Below are positions 209-10,497 of a stretch of DNA of 36,632 bases, piece after piece. A program made the translations under genes and the position numbers. Under the pieces are notes generated by a model, which saw only the letters and a list, made by a program, of their open reading frames with translations, did not search any database and was not told where the DNA came from. Source of the DNA: a virus (taxonomy: Duplodnaviria; Heunggongvirae; Uroviricota; Caudoviricetes); the IMG/VR virus record IMGVR_UViG_2541047758_000014; one strand, written 5' to 3'. Numbering within the stretch: position 1 is the first letter of the stretch; each line of letters begins with the position of its first letter.

Positions 209-649
209 TTACTTAATAACAGTAACCACAGCCACAAGCACGGCCATCGCAGACAGGACAATACCTGTGAGTAGCCAGGTCTGATTTGCAAATGATTTCT
301 GAAGTTCAGTACGATGCTCAGCCATCTCAACTTTCAGAGACTGGCGTAAATCAGCCATCTCAGACTTCAGGGATTGGCGAGATTCTGCCATCTCAAGCCT
401 CAACCCTTCGCGAATCTCCAGTACATCAGATTTGGTAGCAAAGGATTCGCTTCTTGTGGTGAGAGTAATCAGGTTGTTTTTGATTTCAGTCACATCACTT
501 TCCAGGCAACTGACCCGCCGTTCAAGGTCGTCATTCATGCCATCACCTCCATCATTACCACTTCCTGTTACTTGGTTGTTGGATACATTATAGGCATTCT
601 CTTTCTTTTTTCTGAACCGCGAAATATGTGCAACATTCTCTGCCATCAC
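209..649 (-). CDS. Hypothetical membrane-anchored protein with 11-residue coiled-coil-like repeats and a C-terminal transmembrane helix
   Basis: 146 aa ORF; repeats LRLEMAESRQS / LKSEMADLRQS / LKVEMAEHRTE; hydrophobic C-terminus TWLLTGIVLSAMAVLVAVVTVIK; terminator just downstream. Confidence 0.55.
   Translation of the reverse strand: MMAENVAHISRFRKKKENAYNVSNNQVTGSGNDGGDGMNDDLERRVSCLESDVTEIKNNLITLTTRSESFATKSDVLEIREGLRLEMAESRQSLKSEMADLRQSLKVEMAEHRTELQKSFANQTWLLTGIVLSAMAVLVAVVTVIK
318..416. repeat. Three tandem 33-bp repeats inside the 209..649 gene, encoding the 11-aa protein repeats
   Basis: Units at 318..350, 351..383 and 384..416, e.g. tcagccatctcaactttcagagactggcgtaaa / tcagccatctcagacttcagggattggcgagat. 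Confidence 0.7.
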
Positions 650-1008
650 TTCTCATCACCCTGCTTGCCTACCCAGTTCATAAAGGCCCGGGCCGAGTAA
701 CGATGAACAAACCCACATCTGTTACAGGTAAGTCGGAATTCATAGTTATGGATATTTTCCCGATCATGTCCCTCATATCCCGGATACCCAGTAAATGGAC
801 CGATATAATCAAGCATAACAAGAGTGCCTAAATCACACTCCTCAGCAGTTTTCGGCTCAGGCCCCACCTCAACAATATTCGTCAAATACATGTACATATC
901 CGTATCGCCACACGACAAACATTTTTCATTCGTAGACGACTCATTGAGAAAACGCGCAAAATTATCGAGCGTTGCCATTCTTTTAAGTTCATCTAAATGA
1001 AACTTCAC
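646..1008 (-). CDS. Hypothetical protein with two CxxC pairs (possible zinc ribbon)
   Basis: 120 aa ORF; CLSC and CNRC motifs; stop overlaps the start of the downstream gene, suggesting co-transcription; no family recognised. Confidence 0.5.
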   Translation of the reverse strand: MKFHLDELKRMATLDNFARFLNESSTNEKCLSCGDTDMYMYLTNIVEVGPEPKTAEECDLGTLVMLDYIGPFTGYPGYEGHDRENIHNYEFRLTCNRCGFVHRYSARAFMNWVGKQGDEK

Positions 1009-1010
1009 TC

Positions 1011-1988
1011 TTAAGCACCTCCTAGTGGATTAAACCTCACCGCATCCTGCAGGTAATCCGGCGCAAGATGGGCATAAATCATCGTTGTCTGAATCTTTGC
1101 GTGCCCCAGAATTTTCTGGAGCGTCAGAATATTGCCGCCGTTCATCATGAAATGACTGGCGAAGGTGTGGCGCAGCGCATGAACAGCCTGGCCGTCAGGA
1201 ACATCAGGTGCGACCGTTTTGATGACATCGCGAACCAATGGATAATCCAGCGTCGGAAACACCAGTTTCCCGCCCCGTTTTTTGATCTTTTCAAACAGGC
1301 TTTCAGAAATAGGAACGGTACGGTTTTTGCTGTTCTTCGTTTTTGAAAAAGTGATTCGACAATGAAGAACACGGCGCTGCTCCAGTGCCGCTACCTCGCC
1401 CCATCGCGCCCCGGTCGACAGAAGGATTTCGACGGCCAGCCGTTCATCGGGATTTTCAGCCAGTGCATCCAGCAACTGAACACATTCAGACTTACTCAGA
1501 TATCCCATTTCACGCTCGTTAACCTTCATTCCTTTAAGGCCTTGAACGGGGTTATCGTTAAGAAAATGGCCGGATGAGATGAGTGCGGTAAACATCGCGC
1601 TTAACGCCCCAATCTCTCGATTTATGGTGCTGGGCTGTATCCCCTGCTCTATCCTGGACACACGTAGCTCGGTGAGCATCGTTGTATTAAGTTTATGCAC
1701 GCACGGGTCATCCATTGCCTCACTCAAGCGCAGCAATTTAAGGCGCGTGTTATGCCCTGACTTCATTAGCTGGCCGTGGTATTTCCACCACAAGTCAATA
1801 AGCACTGACAGCGGACGGCGATCAATGGAGTTTCCTTTCCACTCATTGTTATGCTGTTGCGCCAGCACCCACCGCTCATATAAAACTGCATCCGATTTCG
1901 TTTTAAATTTTTTGCGAATGCGTTTGCCTTTACGCCCCTCAGGACGCATGTCAAGAAGATACCCTCCCGGAATTGATTTTATGCTCAT
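1011..1988 (-). CDS. int: Phage tyrosine integrase (P2-type site-specific recombinase)
   Basis: Track ORF 1011..2138; start placed at the internal ATG at 1988 (MSIKSIPGGYLLDMRPEG...). C-terminal HALRHTFASHF...ILGHAKIQTTMIYAHL matches the tyrosine recombinase catalytic region (R, H-x-x-R, Y). Confidence 0.9.
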   Translation of the reverse strand: MSIKSIPGGYLLDMRPEGRKGKRIRKKFKTKSDAVLYERWVLAQQHNNEWKGNSIDRRPLSVLIDLWWKYHGQLMKSGHNTRLKLLRLSEAMDDPCVHKLNTTMLTELRVSRIEQGIQPSTINREIGALSAMFTALISSGHFLNDNPVQGLKGMKVNEREMGYLSKSECVQLLDALAENPDERLAVEILLSTGARWGEVAALEQRRVLHCRITFSKTKNSKNRTVPISESLFEKIKKRGGKLVFPTLDYPLVRDVIKTVAPDVPDGQAVHALRHTFASHFMMNGGNILTLQKILGHAKIQTTMIYAHLAPDYLQDAVRFNPLGGA

Positions 1989-2037
1989 TCGTGAAACCCC
2001 AGCGTTACAAGACCACCATGCCCCCAGCGCTCCATGA

Positions 2038-2346
2038 TTAGCCGGGCTGTGTGCCAGTCTTGCGGGGTTTTTGAGAAGGCGATGTGCTTTTTGGCCCATC
2101 AGGGGAGAGAGACGGACTGATCTGCCCAGCAGCCTCATTTGTTTTTCCCGTCATAAGCCAATTCATGTACTTAAAAAAGCGAGGGTGATTAACAATCTTG
2201 ATAAGCACTTCGCCCCCTATGTTTTCAATCCGCCCCGTTTCATAACGACGCAAAGTGCCGATAGGCACATCAATCAGGCCGCAAAATTCTTCGCGCGTTA
2301 AATCCTCTGATTCACGAATCACTCTAATTTTTTCACCGATAAGCAT
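2038..2346 (-). CDS. Immunity repressor, P2 C / 186 CI-like HTH protein
   Basis: Start placed at the internal ATG at 2346 (MLIGEKIRVIRESEDLTREEFCGLIDVPIGTLRRYETG... HTH); lies directly upstream of int and divergent from the early operon, as in P2. Confidence 0.8.
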   Translation of the reverse strand: MLIGEKIRVIRESEDLTREEFCGLIDVPIGTLRRYETGRIENIGGEVLIKIVNHPRFFKYMNWLMTGKTNEAAGQISPSLSPDGPKSTSPSQKPRKTGTQPG

Positions 2347-2442
2347 TGACAGTGTTCCTATAAGTACACTAAGCTTGCGCACGAGGTGTACTTATAAGTA
2401 CACCAAGTCACAAACAACCACAGATAGCGCAGGTTATCACAC
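2347..2442. promoter_or_regulatory. Divergent promoter/operator region between repressor and early operon
   Basis: Direct repeats tataagtacac at 2359..2369 and 2393..2403 (34 bp apart) and TTGACA at 2346..2351; resembles the direct-repeat operator layout of P2-type switches. Exact promoter hexamers not resolved. Confidence 0.5.
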
Positions 2443-2721
2443 ATGGCAAAAGTCCTGAACACACACGAACAGGCAGACTTTGAGCGGTTAGCAGCGTTCT
2501 ATCCCTACCGCGATGAGCATGGGTTACCAGTACTTGAAGAAAGCCTGAAAGATTACGCAAAACGTACCAACCAAGCTGTTAACACAGTGAAAAGACAGGC
2601 TGACAGAGGTTCAATTCCCATCAACCAGGATGAAAAGAACTCAAGACGCACAGTAAATCTCTTCGCTCTTTTCCTGAAAACAATCAGGAGCGCAGAAAAA
2701 TACGTGCAGATGACAAAATAA
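2443..2721 (+). CDS. First early-operon gene, Cox/Apl-like excisionase-regulator by position
   Basis: 92 aa ORF, first gene transcribed away from the repressor; assignment by synteny only, sequence not recognised. Confidence 0.5.
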   Translation: MAKVLNTHEQADFERLAAFYPYRDEHGLPVLEESLKDYAKRTNQAVNTVKRQADRGSIPINQDEKNSRRTVNLFALFLKTIRSAEKYVQMTK

Positions 2722-3374: not shown

Positions 3375-3617
3375 ATGGGCAAAGAATATAAAACTCTCAT
3401 TAACAAAGCACTTGAACGATTTTATTTTCGCTTAAGTGCATCAGGCGCTCATGCTGAACGTGCAGCCCGTGACTCATTGACCAGGGCAATCCGGAGTCTG
3501 TATGACGTGGCTTTTTACGCTGATGATCTGGATGCACTTAACGAACTTTCCGAGCTGATCTGTGCCGCAGAATGCGGGGAACATATTGAACCGTATAAGC
3601 TGGGGAATATTGCATGA
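3375..3617 (+). CDS. Hypothetical early protein
   Basis: 80 aa ORF, 11 bp after the preceding stop. Confidence 0.5.
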   Translation: MGKEYKTLINKALERFYFRLSASGAHAERAARDSLTRAIRSLYDVAFYADDLDALNELSELICAAECGEHIEPYKLGNIA

Positions 3618-3727
3618 GTATATTTATCTCATGGCTTGTTCTGATTATTTCGGTGGCCTGCGCCATTGGGATTATGCGAATTATTCATTCAGTAAAAAAG
3701 ATTGAACGCTTTTTCACTGGCGAATAA
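3614..3727 (+). CDS. Small hydrophobic peptide (37 aa), possible membrane protein
   Basis: ATG at 3614 overlaps the upstream stop (ATGA); translation MSIFISWLVLIISVACAIGIMRIIHSVKKIERFFTGE; below the ORF-track size cutoff. Confidence 0.3.
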   Translation: MSIFISWLVLIISVACAIGIMRIIHSVKKIERFFTGE

Positions 3728-3813
3728 CAGAGCAAATAAAACCACAGGTTAAATAAGAAAATGTAAAAACAATCCGCATTCGCGGAGGTATTCGCACACG
3801 CCAAGGAGGCGTA

Positions 3814-4017
3814 ATGGCAATTAAGCGATTTACCGTCGTTCGTTTTACCTCCAGAGGACGTGAATACGAAGTCGACGAACGCCTGATTACCACAATCGAC
3901 AAACACCGTTCAGAAAAGGATGCACACCACATCTACCTCACTGACGGCACTTACTTCTGCGCCACCAACGTGGTGCGGGTGAACCTTATCCGACAGGTAC
4001 AGGAGTCATGCAGATGA
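3814..4017 (+). CDS. Hypothetical protein
   Basis: 67 aa ORF preceded by a strong RBS (aaggaggcg) 5-13 nt upstream of the ATG. Confidence 0.5.
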   Translation: MAIKRFTVVRFTSRGREYEVDERLITTIDKHRSEKDAHHIYLTDGTYFCATNVVRVNLIRQVQESCR

Positions 4018-4259
4018 CCATTCTGGACTATATCGCCGCCAATCCGGGGTGTAGCGGTGGAGAAATCGCCGCAGCACTGAATACCCCAACCACAGCTATT
4101 AATGCGGAGTTACGCCGACTCTGGCGTAGCGGTTCAGTCATAAGAAAAGAGCGCAAAACAGGTGGTCGCTTCTCTTACCAGGTAAACCCGATGCCGTTCG
4201 GGTGCGGCAATCCACTTACCAATATGTTTAACCAGTTACTGAAGGAAGCCAGAGCATGA
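4014..4259 (+). CDS. Small putative winged-helix DNA-binding protein
   Basis: Track ORF 4008..4259; ATG at 4014 has better RBS spacing (caggag); sequence resembles small HTH regulators. Confidence 0.45.
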   Translation: MTILDYIAANPGCSGGEIAAALNTPTTAINAELRRLWRSGSVIRKERKTGGRFSYQVNPMPFGCGNPLTNMFNQLLKEARA

Positions 4260-4552
4260 GCATCATCAACCACCAGGAATTACGCGAACTGGCGACTGCC
4301 GTGCAAAGAATACCCCTCCATGAATCACTACCATCTCGCGTGAGCTTACAACCGTCAGTGGTGTTGGCACTGCTGGATGAGTTGGAGCACGCCAGAACCA
4401 CGGCCCCTGCCATTCGCCTGACACTCCATCATGAAATCGCTGATTTCTGCGCAACGCTGGGTTCACCTGGCGAACCGGAAACACCGGAAGCAATACAGCG
4501 CGAGTTATTACAACGCATCAATAACGTTTTTGATTTTTTCCTTAACCAGTAA
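4256..4552 (+). CDS. Hypothetical protein
   Basis: 98 aa ORF; ATGA start/stop overlap with the upstream gene. Confidence 0.5.
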   Translation: MSIINHQELRELATAVQRIPLHESLPSRVSLQPSVVLALLDELEHARTTAPAIRLTLHHEIADFCATLGSPGEPETPEAIQRELLQRINNVFDFFLNQ

Positions 4553-4563
4553 GGGATCGCAGC

Positions 4564-4767
4564 ATGAACAAAAAGACCTGGTTTCGCGCATACATGTGGG
4601 TGCTGGTATGCGTCCTCGTCTCTCTCATTCTGTATGCAGGACTACTCCCCCGAATGATTTCATCAGACAGCTCCTTCCTGGTATTGCTGGGCATTTTCAT
4701 TGCCATGCTGTACCCGGCAGGCGTTGTTCGCCTTTTCAGTAAGTACATCAAGGAAATCAAACAATGA
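4564..4767 (+). CDS. Small two-helix membrane protein, possible partner of the downstream SPFH protein
   Basis: 67 aa; two hydrophobic segments (WVLVCVLVSLILYAGLL and FLVLLGIFIAMLYPAGVV); RBS aaggga; stop overlaps the next start. Confidence 0.55.
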   Translation: MNKKTWFRAYMWVLVCVLVSLILYAGLLPRMISSDSSFLVLLGIFIAMLYPAGVVRLFSKYIKEIKQ

Positions 4768-5594
4768 AGAAATTCAAACTCTTTCAGATTCTCCCGCTTT
4801 TTGCCGCCATCCTGCTGGTTGGCTGCGATCGCGTTGAGCCAGGTAATGTGGGCATCAAAGTCAACAAGCTGGGCGACGACAAAGGCGTTGGCGAAGTGGT
4901 TGGCGTTGGCCGCTACTGGACTGGCTGGAATACCGAGGTTTACATCTTCCCGACCTTCAAACAAATGAAGACCTACGATGAGCCGTTCAGCTTTCAGATG
5001 AGTGACGGCACAACCATCGGCTATCACATCGGCGTGGCTTACAAGGTTGATCCATCCAAAGTTACCACAGTGTTTCAGACCTACCGCAAAGGCGTGGATG
5101 ACATTACCGACACTGACCTGCGCCAGAAGATTGCCGATGCACTCAACCGACTGGCCAGCAAAATGACCACCGATAAGTTTATCGACGGTGGTAAGTCTGA
5201 ACTGCTGGATTCAGCACTTAAAGATATTCAGGAAGAGATGACCCCCATCGGCATTCAGGTCATGAGCCTCTCTTATGTCGGTAAACCGGAATATCCGCCA
5301 ACCGTTATCGACAGCATTAACGCCAAAGTCACGGCAAACCAGAAAACCCTGCAACGCGAACAGGAAGTCAAGCAACGCGAAGCAGAAGCCAACATGTTGC
5401 GCGCAGAAGCTGCCGGACAGGCTGATGCCATTCGCACAAAAGCCCAGGCTGAAGCCGACGCCATTCGTTTACGCGGTGAAGCTCTGCGCCAGAATCCCGG
5501 CGTTATGGAGCTGGAAGCAATCAACAAATGGAACGGCACGCTGCCGCAATACATGACCAGCAACACCGCTGTTCCGTTTGTTCCGGTGAAGTAA
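4764..5594 (+). CDS. SPFH/band-7 (prohibitin/stomatin-like) domain lipoprotein
   Basis: 276 aa; lipobox LLVGC at the N-terminus; central region and Ala/Glu/Gln-rich coiled coil typical of SPFH proteins. Confidence 0.7.
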   Translation: MKKFKLFQILPLFAAILLVGCDRVEPGNVGIKVNKLGDDKGVGEVVGVGRYWTGWNTEVYIFPTFKQMKTYDEPFSFQMSDGTTIGYHIGVAYKVDPSKVTTVFQTYRKGVDDITDTDLRQKIADALNRLASKMTTDKFIDGGKSELLDSALKDIQEEMTPIGIQVMSLSYVGKPEYPPTVIDSINAKVTANQKTLQREQEVKQREAEANMLRAEAAGQADAIRTKAQAEADAIRLRGEALRQNPGVMELEAINKWNGTLPQYMTSNTAVPFVPVK

Positions 5595-5963
5595 TTAAAC
5601 CCGGCCAGTGAAAATCGCTGGCCGGAGCAGTATCAGGATTTTTTTTAGTATGCCGTTCTCACAAAAAAACCGCTTGCCATGCCGCAATCAGTCAGGTTAC
5701 ATTTCCGCTGCACCTCATAAAACGGGTGCCGGGATTTCCACCCCGCTGACAACCAAAGCGCACAACCGCGCCAGCGGTTTTTTTGTGCGTACCGTATCGC
5801 CACGTCTTTTTCGCACACGAATTATGGTGGGGCGTATGGGGCCGACTTCGGTCGGGCCGGGTTCTTTGGTTGCCGGTTGTGGAAACCCTGTACGTCTCAC
5901 CACCCCGAGTTTTCCACCTCTGGATGGTGAGTTTTCAAAACTTACAACCAAAGAGGCCACACC

Positions 5964-6194
5964 ATGGCAAACCGCAAACAGCACCGCGCTATCGCGGAGC
6001 GTCGTCACATCCAGACTGAAATCAACCGCAGACTTTTCCGCGCATTCCGCGTCGCGCAAATCATGCACATCAATATGCTGCATGAACGCAGTCACGCACT
6101 ATCGAACAGCTATTCCGCCTCTGTTTTCAGCTATCTGGCGGATGATCTGCGCGAGCTTCAGCAGCTCATCCAGCAGCAAAACAAACTCCATTAA
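5964..6194 (+). CDS. Hypothetical small basic protein
   Basis: 76 aa ORF with RBS aaagagg 7 nt upstream; sits where P2-type phages carry small genes before A. Confidence 0.4.
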   Translation: MANRKQHRAIAERRHIQTEINRRLFRAFRVAQIMHINMLHERSHALSNSYSASVFSYLADDLRELQQLIQQQNKLH

Positions 6195-6266
6195 TTCCTG
6201 TTCCGGGCCTTTCCTGCACCTTGCGGCGGGAGGCCTTCGCACATCTGTAACAAGAGGATTGCCGCA

Positions 6267-6632
6267 ATGATTCTCGCCAACGACTTTCTTGAATACCTGC
6301 TCAACACAGAACGTGATCTTGCCGCTCGCGTGCGTGATCGTTATGACATGTACCTGAAATCCCTGCCTGTACCGCAGCTCGCTGACGGAAAGATTGTTAT
6401 TGATGGTCGCTACATGATTGACAGCCACGAGGGAAATTACAGGCTTTACCGCATTGAAGGTGGTACTCCGTCCGTTATTGGCATTTACCAGCGCCCATCC
6501 TCTGCAATCGTCGATGTGATTGCCGACAGCATCCGCATCACACATCGCCATGCCGACACAGAAGACACCGTGCTGGAAATTCAGCGGCTGGCTACAGTCT
6601 GCCGCGACACCCTGAATGGCATGACGAAGTAA
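6267..6632 (+). CDS. Hypothetical protein upstream of the replication gene
   Basis: 121 aa ORF with RBS aagagga; 6 bp before the gpA start. Confidence 0.5.
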   Translation: MILANDFLEYLLNTERDLAARVRDRYDMYLKSLPVPQLADGKIVIDGRYMIDSHEGNYRLYRIEGGTPSVIGIYQRPSSAIVDVIADSIRITHRHADTEDTVLEIQRLATVCRDTLNGMTK

Positions 6633-6638
6633 ATCACT

Positions 6639-9461
6639 ATGACGGCAGAGTACATCAGGGACTGGCAACAACCGCGCCACGCAGTGGGGCGTGAAGGAAC
6701 GGGGATCCCCGCTCCTGAATCCGCGCTTTCCTCCTGGCTGGATGCCTACCGGGTAGAGAACGAGCGCCGCCAGGAAATGGCTGATGCGGCGTTCTCCGCC
6801 ACGCCGCTGGGCAACCTGATTAATAAAAGCCTGGACGCACAGGAAAAACAGGACAAAACCATCACACTGGCAGGAGACGCCAGAAAACAGGCACGCGGCG
6901 CGGTGGATGAAGCCATGGCCTCGCTGCGCCTGCTGCCGTCCTATCTGCGCGATCCGCTTATTCGCCACCTCTCCTTCCTTCGCAAAAAACAGGAAGCCGA
7001 TCGCCGGAAAGGCAAAAAGAGCTGGCAGGCGGAACGCTATGCACGCGGAACCCTGCGCAAAATATTCGAACGTCTGGATCGCACTGACGGACGCTGGCTG
7101 ACACCGGGTTATCGCTCCCTTGCCGGACGCGAACGCCTGGACGATTTGCTTTACCTGCCGCAGCTCAACAAACACCAGATACAGACGCTGGCCACCATGA
7201 CGGCGGCGATGTTCAGCAGCACCTTCGAAAAACTCTGCGATGGCTTTGGCGCGACTGATGGCGAACTGACCATGGATGTAACGCTGAAGGCGTATCAGAT
7301 GCTGGCCCGCATGGCGTTACACCTGCACGCCATGCCTCCACATTATGACGCACTGACAACAGACAAAGACCGGAGGAACGAACCGGACACGGAGCTGCTG
7401 CCGGGCGCAATCCTTCGCCTGACCTGTGCGGAATGGTGGAAACGCAAACTGTGGCTGTTACGTTGCGAGTGGAGAGAAGAACAACTCCGCGCCGCCTGTC
7501 TGGTTTCCAGAAAAACATCACCCTATCTGAGCCAGGACGCGTTAAGCGAGTTTCGCGCACAGCGCGAGAAAACACGCGATTTCCTGAAAAGTTTCATGCT
7601 GGAAAATGAAGACGGGTTCACGATTGATCTCGAGACAGTGTATTACGCGGGAGTAAGTAACCCGGTTCACCGTAAGGCAGAAATGATGGCCACCATGAAG
7701 GGACTGGAACTTCTGGCCGAAGCCCGTGGCGACAGAGCGGTGTTTCTGACTGTCACCTGCCCGTCAAAATACCACGCAACAACGGAGAACGGTCATCCGA
7801 ACCCCAAATGGAACGGGGCCACCATGCGCGACTCCAGCGATTACCTGGTTAACACGTTTTTTGCGGCGGTCCGCAAGAAACTGAACCGCGACGGCCTGCG
7901 CTGGTATGGCATCCGCACGGTGGAGCCTCACCATGACGGCACCGTGCACTGGCATATGATGGTCTTTGCTCATCCGGAAGAAATCGACACCATTGTGTCC
8001 CACACCCGCGATATTGCCATTCAGGAAGATCGCCACGAGCTGGGCGATGATATTACTCCGCGCTTTAAGGCGGAGTACGTCGACGGCTCAAAAGGTACGC
8101 CAACCAGCTACATCGCCACCTACATCGGAAAGAACCTGGACAGCCGCGCCGTGGATGGTATCGACCCGAAAACGGGCAAGCCACGCGTTGACCACGAAAC
8201 CGGAAAATCAATGGCCGAGAGCGTGGAGCGCGCCATCGGCTGGGCGCGCCTTCACCGGGTCCGCCAGTTCCAGTTCTTTGGCATCCCCTCCCGTCAGGTG
8301 TGGCGTGAACTACGCCGCCTTGCCAGCCAGATGGCACGCAACCCGGAAGGCCCGCAACGGCTGAAGGATGACGCAATGGATGCGGTACTCGCTGCCGCTG
8401 ATGCCGGGTGTTTTGCCACCTACATTGAAAAACAGGGTGGCGTGCTTGTTCCACGCAAAGACTACCTGATTCGCACCGCCTACGACCTCGCAGAAGAGCT
8501 GAACGATTACGGCGAACAGAGCGTACAGATTTATGGGATCTGGTCACCACTCATCGGGGAATCCTCCCGTGTGTGCACGCATCCGGATAACTGGAAGCTG
8601 GTAAGACGCAAACCGGAAGCGGAAGACAGCACCCGCGAAAATGGTTTTGACCTTCAGGGCGGCCCTGCCGCCCCTTGGACTCGTGGCAATAACTGTCCCC
8701 GTGTACAGGAAACGAACAACAACGGGACAGAACAGCCGGAAGAACGGCCAGCACCGTGGCCGCAGCTCCCTGACGGCGTTGAAGTGAACGAATGGATGCG
8801 CTCACTGAAACGGCACGAACGCCGGGCGCTGATGCGTTCGCTTCGTGACAAACAGGCAAAAAACAGCAGCGATGAAATGCAGAGCTGGACACAGAGCCGC
8901 AAACAGCAGCGGCCTTTGCCTGATAACCACGAATTACTCGCTAAAGAATGGCGGGAGTCTGCTGAATCTCTCGGCCTGCATATCGGTGAACAACAGATGC
9001 AGCACCTGTTACGGGGCGGCAGTCTGTACGTTGACGGCAGCATCATTGCACCGCAGGGATTTGAAATTGTACGCAAACCGGATACCCGCCCGGACAGCCG
9101 AATCACGCAGCTCTGGCAGCGCCTGAGCCGTAATCACGGCGTAAGCAGCACGGAGATCCGCCATAACCCGGTCTCCAGCTATCTGGCACAGCTCGGGGCA
9201 TCAGACCCCGAAGCCGCCGCACGCCTGGCATCCACACTTCAGCAGGTCCAGAACACCATGAAAACACCCGTTACCGTGCTTTCTGACATGCTGCGCGCCA
9301 TTCGTGACGCAGAGCACGCACAGAGAATCAGAGAAACCACTGAACGCGCCCGCCGCAAAGCAAACCTGCTGAGGACTGGCCTGACCAGTGGAAACAAAAA
9401 ACAGACAGAAACGGGATTCACAAATCCCGTAAATGAGCAAAAAACGCGCCGCGATATATGA
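6639..9461 (+). CDS. A: Replication initiation endonuclease (P2 gpA / 186 A-like rolling-circle initiator)
   Basis: 940 aa; contains the HUH-type region HHDGTVHWHMMVFAHPEEI and Tyr-containing segment characteristic of P2 A; position after the early operon. Confidence 0.85.
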   Translation: MTAEYIRDWQQPRHAVGREGTGIPAPESALSSWLDAYRVENERRQEMADAAFSATPLGNLINKSLDAQEKQDKTITLAGDARKQARGAVDEAMASLRLLPSYLRDPLIRHLSFLRKKQEADRRKGKKSWQAERYARGTLRKIFERLDRTDGRWLTPGYRSLAGRERLDDLLYLPQLNKHQIQTLATMTAAMFSSTFEKLCDGFGATDGELTMDVTLKAYQMLARMALHLHAMPPHYDALTTDKDRRNEPDTELLPGAILRLTCAEWWKRKLWLLRCEWREEQLRAACLVSRKTSPYLSQDALSEFRAQREKTRDFLKSFMLENEDGFTIDLETVYYAGVSNPVHRKAEMMATMKGLELLAEARGDRAVFLTVTCPSKYHATTENGHPNPKWNGATMRDSSDYLVNTFFAAVRKKLNRDGLRWYGIRTVEPHHDGTVHWHMMVFAHPEEIDTIVSHTRDIAIQEDRHELGDDITPRFKAEYVDGSKGTPTSYIATYIGKNLDSRAVDGIDPKTGKPRVDHETGKSMAESVERAIGWARLHRVRQFQFFGIPSRQVWRELRRLASQMARNPEGPQRLKDDAMDAVLAAADAGCFATYIEKQGGVLVPRKDYLIRTAYDLAEELNDYGEQSVQIYGIWSPLIGESSRVCTHPDNWKLVRRKPEAEDSTRENGFDLQGGPAAPWTRGNNCPRVQETNNNGTEQPEERPAPWPQLPDGVEVNEWMRSLKRHERRALMRSLRDKQAKNSSDEMQSWTQSRKQQRPLPDNHELLAKEWRESAESLGLHIGEQQMQHLLRGGSLYVDGSIIAPQGFEIVRKPDTRPDSRITQLWQRLSRNHGVSSTEIRHNPVSSYLAQLGASDPEAAARLASTLQQVQNTMKTPVTVLSDMLRAIRDAEHAQRIRETTERARRKANLLRTGLTSGNKKQTETGFTNPVNEQKTRRDI

Positions 9462-9537: not shown

Positions 9538-10497
9538 ATGAAAATTTGTATCGACGACGGCTCCACCAACATCAAGCTGGCATGGACTGAGAATGGCGAA
9601 CGCCGCAACGCCATCAGCCCGAACAGCTTCAAGTCGGAATGGTCTGCGCCGTTCGGTGGCATGCAGCCCGCGAACTACATGCTTGATGGCGTGCGCTATG
9701 GTTTTGATCCGGTCAGCGATCGCTTTGTCCAGACGACCGACACGCAATACCAGTACAGCGATGTGAATGTAATCGCCATTCATCACGCGCTGGTCAAATC
9801 AGGCATCACGCCACAAGAGGTGGATGTGGTTGTCACCCTGCCACTGAGCGAGTATTTCGAGACAAACGCACAGCCGGACATGGCCAACATCAACCGCAAA
9901 AAAGCGAACGTTATGCGCTCGGTGGAGTACCAGAACGGCGAAGCATTCACTATCCGTAACGTGCGGGTTATGCCTGAATCCATTCCGGCTGGCTTTAAAG
10001 CACTGGCTGACATGAGTCCGTTTGAATCCCTGCTGATTGTGGATTTAGGCGGAACCACGCTGGATGTGGCAAAGGTTCAAGGGCAACTGGCAGGTATCAG
10101 CCAGGTGTTTTGCGATCCACACGTAGGCGTTTCCCTGATGGCCGATGCCGTACTGTCGGTGATGGCCACTAACGGTATGCGCACCAGTCACCACATCGCC
10201 AATACCATTATCGAACATCGCCATGATGAAGCCTGGCTGCGCCAGCACATCCACAATGACGCGCATTACGCCAGCCTGATGGCGGTTATTCGTGAAAAGG
10301 AAGAAACACTGAAACAACGCGTGATCCGCGCGCTGGCGGTTTTTTCGGGTTACGGGCGGGTGATGGTTGTCGGTGGAGGGGCGGAGATTGTGGCACCCGC
10401 TATCCGCGAAGTCTGCGGAGTTAATGCGACTTTCATCGCGGACGGGGTGCCACAGTTTGCTCTGGTTAATGGGCTGTACGCAATGGACAAGGAGTAA
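9538..10497 (+). CDS. parM: ParM/StbA-like actin-type partition ATPase
   Basis: 319 aa; N-terminus MKICIDDGSTNIKLAW and ISPNSFK...YSDVNVIAIHHAL closely resemble plasmid R1 ParM (MLVFIDDGSTNIKLQW...). Confidence 0.85.
   Translation: MKICIDDGSTNIKLAWTENGERRNAISPNSFKSEWSAPFGGMQPANYMLDGVRYGFDPVSDRFVQTTDTQYQYSDVNVIAIHHALVKSGITPQEVDVVVTLPLSEYFETNAQPDMANINRKKANVMRSVEYQNGEAFTIRNVRVMPESIPAGFKALADMSPFESLLIVDLGGTTLDVAKVQGQLAGISQVFCDPHVGVSLMADAVLSVMATNGMRTSHHIANTIIEHRHDEAWLRQHIHNDAHYASLMAVIREKEETLKQRVIRALAVFSGYGRVMVVGGGAEIVAPAIREVCGVNATFIADGVPQFALVNGLYAMDKE

Follow-up and report, generated by a model that had tools for sequence, protein, structure and literature searches.

A lipobox-bearing SPFH protein and its small two-helix partner form a predicted membrane module in the early operon of a P88-like phage genome

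SPFH proteins, among them HflK/C, prohibitins, stomatins and flotillins, build cages that fence off membrane patches, and the purpose of such cages in bacteria is largely open. Two members of Escherichia coli, QmcA and YqiK, face the cytoplasm. Some phage superinfection-exclusion membrane proteins are expressed early in lytic infection, and lambda CIII inhibits FtsH. A precedent for an SPFH protein that acts with small membrane proteins is Bacillus subtilis YdjI with YdjG/YdjH, which has been linked to membrane-stress protection (PMC8581546; bioRxiv 10.64898/2026.02.06.704340). Here we describe a pair of phage genes at positions 4564–5594 of a 36,632-nucleotide viral DNA (Caudoviricetes; IMG/VR record IMGVR_UViG_2541047758_000014), a stretch that was analysed at its full length and is called the window below. 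The window is a P88-like genome of the Peduoviridae (P2 family), genus Xuanwuvirus, and from position 2772 onward is about 95–97% identical to Escherichia phage P88. The pair encodes an SPFH lipoprotein preceded by a small two-helix membrane protein, and the best overall explanation of our findings, to which we give a probability of roughly 0.55, is a two-gene membrane module with a periplasm-facing scaffold that is made early in lytic growth. The role of the family was called unclear in two genome papers (PMC13239085, PMC8540360), and no functional study of the phage family was found in the literature searched. The features of the pair are as follows.

4564–4767, plus strand: two-helix membrane protein, 67 residues (N-terminal tail 1–8, first transmembrane helix 9–28, turn 29–37, second transmembrane helix 38–58, C-terminal tail 59–67)
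4764–5594, plus strand: SPFH lipoprotein precursor, 276 residues (signal peptide 1–20, lipobox LVGC, SPFH domain, long helix, C-terminal tail)
4824–4829, plus strand: codons of Cys21, predicted to be lipidated after cleavage by signal peptidase II, and of Asp22 (+2), as read from the sequence
4830–5390, plus strand: SPFH/Band_7 domain proper, residues 23–209 (Pfam envelope)
5298–5492, plus strand: single 65-residue helix, residues 179–243, rich in Ala, Glu, Gln and Arg (DSSP on the AlphaFold2 model)

There is little room for doubt that the product of the larger gene is an SPFH protein of the prohibitin/HflK/C type with a lipobox. This product matched Pfam Band_7 (PF01145) with an E-value of 5.7e-31 and 108.4 bits against a gathering cut-off of 23.6, the match running over residues 23–209 and profile positions 2–176 of 176, and it matched PHROG 200, a 'lipoprotein' family, with an E-value of 1.8e-112. 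The AlphaFold2 model of the 276-residue protein (mean pLDDT 86.3) contains beta-rich and alpha/beta elements (E21–E95, H97–159, E164–176) as well as the long helix, and the top Foldseek matches, all full-length with a probability of 1.00, were HflC/HflK (7vhq), erlin (9vvg), prohibitin (8rrh) and stomatin. Among solved structures, HflK and prohibitin-2 are closest in sequence; helix 179–243 aligns with HflK 180–306 and with the prohibitin-2 coiled coil, and in the model it would be the counterpart of the coiled-coil wall of SPFH cages. The C-terminal tail carries a conserved KWNGxLP...PF motif. The protein was rejected as HflK or HflC itself, as its scores of 25.7 bits for the HflC equivalog TIGR01932 (cut-off 134.4) and 23.5 bits for the HflK equivalog TIGR01933 (cut-off 159.4) fall far under the NCBIfam thresholds. 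Distant members of the family are named 'prohibitin family protein' by NCBI, and the P88 record already annotates the counterpart gene as an SPFH lipoprotein. Other GenBank and RefSeq labels for the family include 'serine protease', 'putative transposase (fusion protein)', 'protein QmcA', 'HflK-like protein' and 'high frequency of lysogenization C protein'. We rejected the protease and transposase labels, since the window protein matches no protease or transposase family in Pfam or NCBIfam; they are probably misannotations inherited from the COG name 'membrane protease subunits, stomatin/prohibitin homologs'.

The N-terminus of the precursor reads MKKFKLFQILPLFAAILLVG followed by Cys, which is a canonical L-V-G-C lipobox, and the signal peptide, MKKFK-LFQILPLFAAIL-LVGC, combines a basic n-region and a hydrophobic h-region with a lipobox that fits the pattern [LVI][ASTVI][GAS]C, as judged by reading the sequence. 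At least 90% of the 73 homologues in alignment A5 retain Cys21, which is invariant in alignment A2, and among 140 full-length sequences representing clusters at 50% identity, 107 show the lipobox pattern. All enterobacterial versions compared share the mature N-terminus CDRVEPG, and residues +2 to +4 are DRV in six enterobacterial phage versions. In E. coli, Asp at +2 is the inner-membrane retention signal of lipoproteins (Lol avoidance).

The smaller gene encodes a protein that matched PHROG 1130 (phrog_1130, 'membrane protein') with an E-value of 1.1e-21; the PHROG categories of the two proteins are 'other' and 'moron/auxiliary'. No Pfam family matched the window partner, and no relative of the partner profile was found in the PDB. 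Its inter-helix turn (residues 29–37, PRMISSDSS) is conserved and forms the core motif, [LV]-P-x-[LM]-[IV]-S-x-x-[ST], with P29, S33 and G43 invariant across 16 diverse homologues. The first-pass annotation of this DNA, made by a model from the letters alone, had pointed to NfeD-like families as partners to be checked. NfeD (PF01957) gave no match to the window partner or to 15 diverse homologues at E-values up to 1, and the two helices fill the entire 67 residues, leaving no room for an OB-fold domain; an NfeD-like partner was therefore rejected in favour of a separate uncharacterised family (phrog_1130). Each tail of the partner carries three Lys or Arg residues, and the turn has one Arg and one Asp and thus no net charge. 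By the positive-inside rule, the hairpin is therefore predicted to be oriented N-in/C-in, in which case the periplasm would see only the nine-residue turn. In public records, the partner ORF is left unannotated at L003 2762–2950, L004 2759–2947, L168 about 6784–7020 and L169 2259–2462, which are Stx2a phages, phiP27, the RefSeq plasmid pF8704-2_2 and Erwinia phage Pastis; in all of them it is conserved and overlaps the start of the SPFH gene.

Two transmembrane helices, an N-in/C-in topology and a charged C-tail are gross features of class II holins, and the 67-residue partner shares all three as predicted. It could consequently be seen as a class II holin, a pinholin or an antiholin-like lysis-timing protein with the SPFH protein as its regulator, and one partner homologue does have a faint match to Pfam Holin_SPP1 (E 0.17). 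However, no holin family was matched significantly, the gene lies in an early operon rather than in a late lysis cassette, and its counterparts are conserved beside SPFH genes, or fused with them, in bacterial chromosomes amid housekeeping genes, so that we consider a lysis-timing role extremely improbable.

A word-indexed search with so small a protein returned close relatives only, and the distant partners came from a purpose-built profile hidden Markov model (HMM) run on loci. The HMM was built from upstream two-helix ORFs and from the N-terminal extensions of longer homologues, and the 80 loci were drawn from one-genome-per-species bacterial and archaeal collections, in which they were found with a 10-sequence alignment. 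In 45 of the 80 loci the HMM detected the partner immediately 5' of the SPFH gene, and in four it was fused to it; the positive loci span Enterobacterales, Xanthomonadales, Sutterella, Leptospira, Bacteroidota, Dependentiae and a metagenome-assembled genome (MAG) of Eubacteriaceae, and in many of the other loci this position is taken by a two-helix ORF of greater divergence or by an in-frame extension. In phages, genes of PHROG 200 and PHROG 1130 are adjacent and co-directional in P88, Stx2a phages, phiP27, phage-plasmids, Pastis, Cyrano and Fraca. A two-helix ORF of 62–78 residues, often unannotated, lies immediately 5' of the SPFH gene in lambdoid phages, phage-plasmids, Pastis, Cyrano and Fraca, and its 3' end either runs 4, 16 or 20 nt into the SPFH gene or stops a few nt short of it. 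In PVP-SE1 and Bruynoghevirus Ab22 the partner is found 150–500 nt upstream, with one or two small genes between. Natural fusions account for 18 of the 140 cluster representatives, in 17 of which the partner is N-terminal and in one (P0147) C-terminal; the HMM seeds included the latter and 13 of the N-terminal fusions, the other four N-terminal fusions being non-seeds. Because fusion occurs in both orders and adjacency is conserved, the partner and the SPFH protein very probably work as one unit, and in all likelihood the 67-residue protein is the dedicated partner of the SPFH protein, the two together being a 'split' SPFH protein. At one Shigella flexneri locus (L086, 5030–6831), the two genes stand about 770 bp apart with IS1-like frames on the opposite strand between them, which looks like a pair split by an insertion sequence; an E. 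coli locus with the same SPFH N-terminus (L087) is probably split as well.

At the nucleotide level, the two genes of the window are joined as follows.

4551–4556, plus strand: Shine-Dalgarno-like AAGGGA of the partner gene, overlapping the TAA stop (4550–4552) of the Ead/Ea22-like gene
4750–4767, plus strand: coupling junction, with AAGGA at 4750–4754, the SPFH ATG at 4764–4766 and the partner TGA at 4765–4767

The sequence AAACAATGAAG contains a 4-nt ATGA overlap of the partner stop and the SPFH start, and the AAGGA sits 10–14 nt 5' of that start. The same 4-nt overlap was seen in all 60 partner ORFs detected when 83 phage and viral loci were scanned; other overlaps are 20 nt in phage-plasmid loci of the L063 type, which that scan missed, and 16 nt in Pastis. 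The first-pass annotation had described a 67-residue two-helix membrane protein translationally coupled to an SPFH/band-7 lipoprotein and paired with it in function, and this much of its account holds: the ORF with its two hydrophobic helices is there, the profile search is clear on the SPFH identity, the lipobox is present with a conserved cysteine, the overlap of the ORFs supports coupling, and adjacency across phyla together with natural fusions argues for partnership.

In the fused forms, the elements follow each other in the order first helix, turn, second helix, basic linker, lipobox-containing helix and SPFH domain, which places the SPFH domain outside the cytoplasm. Based on this order, Asp at +2, the predicted topology of the partner and the conservation of CDRVEPG, we propose an inner-membrane scaffold that faces the periplasm. 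The lipoprotein would stay on the inner membrane with its SPFH domain on the periplasmic side, like that of HflK/C, and it probably forms a ring or cage that fences a patch of membrane. The hairpin would supply the transmembrane part and the lipoprotein the scaffold, the same pieces being fused elsewhere into one chain, and the turn P-x-[LM]-[IV]-S-x-x-[ST] would be the likely contact with the SPFH protein. The two parts differ in how they diverge. The mature SPFH protein is 96–98% identical among the window, the phiP27/Stx2a phages and the phage-plasmids, whereas in the same comparison the partner is only 22–45% identical and the signal peptide about 40%. DNA similarity starts abruptly at the lipobox codons (window 4815–5560 against L003, L004 and L063), and the final nine or so residues of the SPFH protein come in two types, SNTAVPFVPVK and SGANTPFIQ[IV]K. 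The abrupt boundary and the asymmetry of identity suggest that membrane part and scaffold behave as separate blocks in exchange or in evolution. Constraint on the membrane parts may be weak, or else the partner would be a specificity subunit that evolves fast.

Considering its fold and predicted orientation, the module could instead be a mimic of HflK/C, in which an SPFH ring on the periplasmic side captures host FtsH, or a different protease or quality-control factor of the inner membrane, or displaces it. Phage or host proteins would then become more or less stable in early infection, as happens when lambda CIII inhibits FtsH. P2-like phages with a C/Cox switch are not known to have an FtsH-controlled regulator, which speaks against this possibility, as do the HflC and HflK scores far under the equivalog cut-offs, the frequency of the family in strictly lytic phages that take no lysis-lysogeny decision, and the module's own transmembrane partner, which suggests a self-sufficient complex. 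On the other hand, HflK and HflC are the best matches in sequence and fold among solved structures, the NCBIfam HflC/HflK matches are there even if weak, the SPFH domain would be periplasmic in the same orientation, the lambdoid pair lies in the same class of leftward early region as cIII, and several genome papers have suggested an HflK/C link (PMC4936722, PMC8540360). Cumulatively, we regard an HflK/C mimic as doubtful, though as the main alternative.

The place of the pair in the genome bears on when it is made, and the relevant features are these.

1011–2138, minus strand: integrase, at the left end
2038–2382, minus strand: helix-turn-helix repressor gene, facing the plus-strand ORF run that starts at 2443
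2443–2721, plus strand: first early ORF, at the left end
4256–4552, plus strand: Ead/Ea22-like gene, directly upstream of the partner gene, with its TAA stop at 4550–4552
4571–5659, plus strand: accessory cassette, in the window and P88, absent base for base from vB_EcoM-569R5
5601–5611/5615–5625 and 5639–5646, plus strand: 11-bp G+C-rich hairpin (inverted repeat) and T8 run, the latter 13 nt past the hairpin
6639–9461, plus strand: replication gene A, following the pair, the RNAs and two ORFs

Between 2443 and 9461, all ORFs point the same way and are either overlapping or separated by short junctions, and this run is the P2-type early (Pe) operon. Its order is a Cox-like ORF, DUF4754, a winged-helix protein, the Ead/Ea22-like protein and then the SPFH pair, which is followed on the same strand by a hairpin, isrK-like and C4-like RNAs, two ORFs and gene A (6639–9461). 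The pair therefore lies in mid-operon, about 2.1 kb inside a repressible transcription unit, and does not end the operon as had been stated at first. Since the AAGGGA of the partner gene overlaps the preceding stop codon, there is no promoter space between the Ead/Ea22-like and partner genes. No promoter-like site was found over 3428–5674 in a crude consensus scan, and an equally crude scan found no sigma-70-like site upstream of the pair in the window, in one Stx2a phage or in one phage-plasmid. On its 3' side, the region 5585–5665 folds with -26.4 kcal/mol (z = -3.84). The hairpin at 5601–5625 was rejected as a canonical intrinsic terminator, as the terminator scan did not call it and its T run is 13 nt off; the structure at 5601–5646 is the 3' end of the cassette and may be either a weak or atypical terminator or an mRNA-stabilising hairpin. 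In our model, read-through from Pe probably yields the pair early in the lytic cycle that follows infection or induction, and in a quiescent lysogen the pair would probably not be made. We infer this early lytic expression from the lack of a promoter-like site, the location in repressible early operons and the presence of the family in lytic phages.

The pair is an accessory element, as had been suggested from the sequence. The close relative vB_EcoM-569R5 (L002), otherwise collinear, lacks exactly 1,089 bp at this place (blastn: window 3803–4570 corresponds to L002 2415–3206, and window 5660–7000 to L002 3207–4547), and what it lacks comprises the two genes and the strong hairpin at 5601–5625. 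The slot varies among Xuanwuviruses: it is empty in P884B11 and holds an unrelated DNA-binding gene in Shae_phiSM, and phage 520873 is without the entire neighbourhood. Among sequenced P2-like phage isolates the cassette is present only in P88, so that a pair that is universal in P2-like early regions is not what we see, and no consistent third gene stands beside the pair, its neighbours varying from phage to phage. Of 5,426 complete E. coli genomes, 145 have the whole cassette and 576 (about 10%) some version of the SPFH gene, which is carried by P2-like prophages, lambdoid prophages and phage-plasmids.

Among phage records, tblastn detected the family in 385 of 50,697. Obligately lytic groups are included, namely Schitoviridae, Vequintavirinae (PVP-SE1), Ounavirinae (phiEa104), Bruynoghevirus, phiCbK-like and jumbo phages. 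Near-identical SPFH genes are found in Stx2a-converting and phiP27 lambdoid phages, where they lie in the leftward early region between cI and xis-int, in the HK97-like Fraca, in SSU5-like 110-kb phage-plasmids, in the lytic N4-like Erwinia phage Pastis and, within a tRNA array, in a 75–95-kb E. coli phage-plasmid; a 108-kb Yersinia pestis contig (L089) has a 77% identical copy. The plasmid pF8704-2_2 (74.5 kb) has the pair (L168, 5783–9088) inside an array of five tRNA genes, and in this plasmid type a gene annotated 'Thoeris anti-defense Tad2 family protein' lies about 700 bp downstream, so that the neighbourhood may be an accessory or anti-defence region. In the lytic, rV5-like PVP-SE1 (L172, 1133–2838), the partner is gp115 and the SPFH lipoprotein gp117, among the small membrane-protein genes gp116, gp118 and gp119, and this run may be a larger membrane-acting early cluster. 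Six divergent bacterial loci are prophages, flanked by anti-repressors, terminases, Gam-like and Rha-like proteins, in Sutterella, Bacteroidales, Muribaculaceae, Salinivirgaceae, Eubacteriaceae and a Leptospirales MAG, and five others lie amid housekeeping genes in Luteibacter, Dyella, Saprospirales, Leptospira and an unclassified MAG. The two kinds of loci together suggest a cellular membrane device in some lineages that has been carried repeatedly by phages.

Such a distribution, with an accessory indel and about one in ten complete E. coli genomes carrying the gene on P2-like and lambdoid prophages and phage-plasmids, is also what might be expected of a lysogenic-conversion moron, expressed from the prophage and giving the lysogen superinfection exclusion or tolerance of membrane stress. 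Lipoproteins and small inner-membrane proteins are typical exclusion factors. Further, PM0222, a prophage protein of Pasteurella multocida whose homology to the family is unverified, is detectable in cultured prophage-carrying cells (PMC9872710). Against these points stand the location of the pair inside repressor-controlled early operons in P2-like and lambdoid phages alike, the absence of a promoter-like site for the pair in the crude scan, the occurrence of the module in obligately lytic phages, and the lack of a PADLOC match. The protection of lysogens, which the first-pass annotation had offered as one possible function, is weakened in particular by the mid-operon position with no promoter-like site over 3428–5674 and by the strictly lytic members of the family, and we consider such a moron unlikely.

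The family is frequent in Stx2-converting phages, which raises the possibility that the lipoprotein is exposed on the surface or carried by vesicles and affects the animal host as a virulence or immune-stimulating factor. TLR1/2 is the receptor pair for triacylated lipoproteins, and TLR2 stimulation is generic to any bacterial lipoprotein, which lessens the weight of the precedent. This precedent is PM0222, a prophage-encoded HflK/C-like protein of 25–35 kDa that is found in outer-membrane vesicles and signals via TLR1/2, and the deletion of which attenuates virulence in mice (PMC9872710). Apart from its unverified homology to the window family, Asp at +2 predicts inner-membrane retention in E. 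coli, and members are also found in free-living bacteria and in phages that infect soil, plant or aquatic bacteria, settings to which a role in an animal host cannot apply. We find this explanation very improbable.

Returning to the periplasm-facing module made early in lytic growth, we tentatively propose that during infection the pair shields the inner membrane of its host cell or makes it more stable. Shielding could mean blocking the entry of superinfecting DNA, blunting membrane-directed abortive-infection effectors or blunting premature lysis. A more specific idea, which we hold to be rather doubtful, is a widespread early phage function in which a constant SPFH cage and a fast-evolving two-helix specificity subunit are directed against an inner-membrane target as an exclusion or anti-defence device; if true, such a device would block the entry of rival phages or neutralise abortive-infection effectors in lytic and temperate phages alike. 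PADLOC returned no match for the SPFH protein and only a noise-level one for the partner (E 0.0088, 14 bits).

Several points weigh against the module as we describe it. The pair stands amid housekeeping genes in some bacteria, so its basic activity is not phage-specific, and PADLOC gives no tie to a known defence system. Cage assembly and the contact between partner and SPFH protein are proposed by analogy with relatives; the AlphaFold2 model of the natural fusion P0387 has three helices with a pLDDT of 53–75 in the membrane part, and it shows nothing reliable on how the hairpin meets the SPFH domain. An Arg at +3 stands beside Asp at +2 and may affect the predicted retention. Keeping in mind that the promoter scan was a crude consensus match, a weak internal promoter may be active in lysogens. 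PM0222, possibly related, was reported in whole-cell lysates of the prophage-carrying wild type and in its outer-membrane vesicles (PMC9872710), and these data would fit sorting to the outer membrane and expression in lysogens, although the homology could not be checked. Finally, the observations would fit the modulation of a protease as well as shielding or exclusion.

A few observations concern the neighbourhood of the pair. Megablast aligned nothing in positions 1–2771 of the window with P88, so the immunity and integration module differs, and two minus-strand ORFs at the element edge, outside the integrase, could be cargo. A second tiny membrane ORF of the early operon (3614–3727, plus strand, 37 residues) has one hydrophobic helix and corresponds to P88 gp07, 'membrane protein'. 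The ORF directly after gene A (9538–10497, plus strand) is the counterpart of P88 gp17, annotated 'plasmid segregation protein ParM', which is unusual for a P2-like integrating phage. Directly 3' of the cassette, an antisense-RNA module of the P1 immI/P4 type occupies 5674–5960 on the plus strand.

209–649, minus strand: coiled-coil protein with a C-terminal hydrophobic helix, at the element edge
646–1008, minus strand: ORF of a Cys-rich protein, at the element edge
5608–6270, plus strand: 220-residue ORF with a GTG start, covering the isrK and C4 RNA genes
5674–5703, plus strand: promoter-like site (promoter scan)
5710–5784, plus strand: isrK-like RNA (64 bits)
5820–5907, plus strand: C4 antisense RNA (80.5 bits)

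The C4 loop elements, CUUUGGUUG at 5864–5872 and GUGGAAAC at 5879–5886, are complementary to the isrK-like RNA at 5732–5741 and 5750–5758, and also to about 5909–5918 and 5944–5953. The last of these sites overlaps the ribosome-binding site of a 76-residue ORF (5964–6194) that is called 'derepression protein' in P88, and the layout looks like the P1-type a1b1 - c4 - a2b2 arrangement, just upstream of gene A in a P2-like phage. The 220-residue ORF, the counterpart of which is annotated as a coding sequence in 569R5 and P884B11 ('hypothetical protein', 'transcriptional regulator'), is probably no real gene but a miscall across genes for non-coding RNAs.

Taken together, vague labels are replaced by a concrete object, an SPFH protein with a specific two-helix partner, sometimes fused, probably facing the periplasm and probably made early in lytic growth. 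The two-helix partner, the natural fusions and the distribution in lytic phages are absent from the literature searched; the fold itself is not new. If the module controls phage entry, membrane-directed immunity or protease activity, it would offer a small, tractable model of SPFH function, and it would be of relevance for Stx-converting phages and for therapeutic phages that carry it.

Compared with described systems, E. coli HflK/HflC (with FtsH) resemble the window protein in having an SPFH domain, a long coiled-coil helix and a C-terminal cap segment, and their SPFH domain is on the periplasmic side, as is predicted for the window protein. In contrast to them, the window has one SPFH gene rather than a K/C pair, a predicted lipid anchor rather than an N-terminal transmembrane helix, only about 15–18% identity, and a two-transmembrane partner of its own. 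Eukaryotic prohibitin and erlin cages share the subunit architecture (Foldseek E 1e-13, probability 1.00) and are likewise non-cytosolic scaffolds, whereas the window version is bacterial or phage-borne, has a predicted lipoprotein anchor, is presumably a homo-oligomer and comes with a separate two-transmembrane subunit. SPFH-NfeD operons (E. coli QmcA-YbbJ and YqiK-YqiJ, archaeal PH1511-PH1510) also have a small membrane-protein gene directly 5' and co-translated, and the QmcA-YbbJ complex (8z5g) was among the Foldseek matches, at rank 32; the window partner, however, has no NfeD or OB-fold domain, and its SPFH protein is predicted to be exported, the opposite orientation to QmcA and YqiK. 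The superinfection-exclusion proteins T4 Imm and Sp, HK97 gp15, P22 SieA, T5 Llp and TP-J34 Ltp are, too, small inner-membrane proteins or lipoproteins of phages, but none of them is an SPFH protein, and no relationship in sequence or family was detected with Pfam, PHROG, NCBIfam or PADLOC. P. multocida PM0222 (Pmorf0222) is a prophage-encoded, HflK/C-like SPFH protein of similar size with lipoprotein-like TLR1/2 signalling (PMC9872710); it differs in being reported in outer-membrane vesicles and as a virulence factor, and its homology is unverified. B. subtilis YdjI (SamI), with YdjG/YdjH and PspA, is an SPFH protein without a transmembrane segment of its own that is recruited by small membrane partners from the same operon. 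YdjI is cytosolic, its partners are unrelated in sequence and the window pair has no adjacent PspA-like gene, yet as a case of an SPFH protein recruited by small dedicated membrane partners, YdjI with YdjG/YdjH would be the nearest functional analogy to the module described here.

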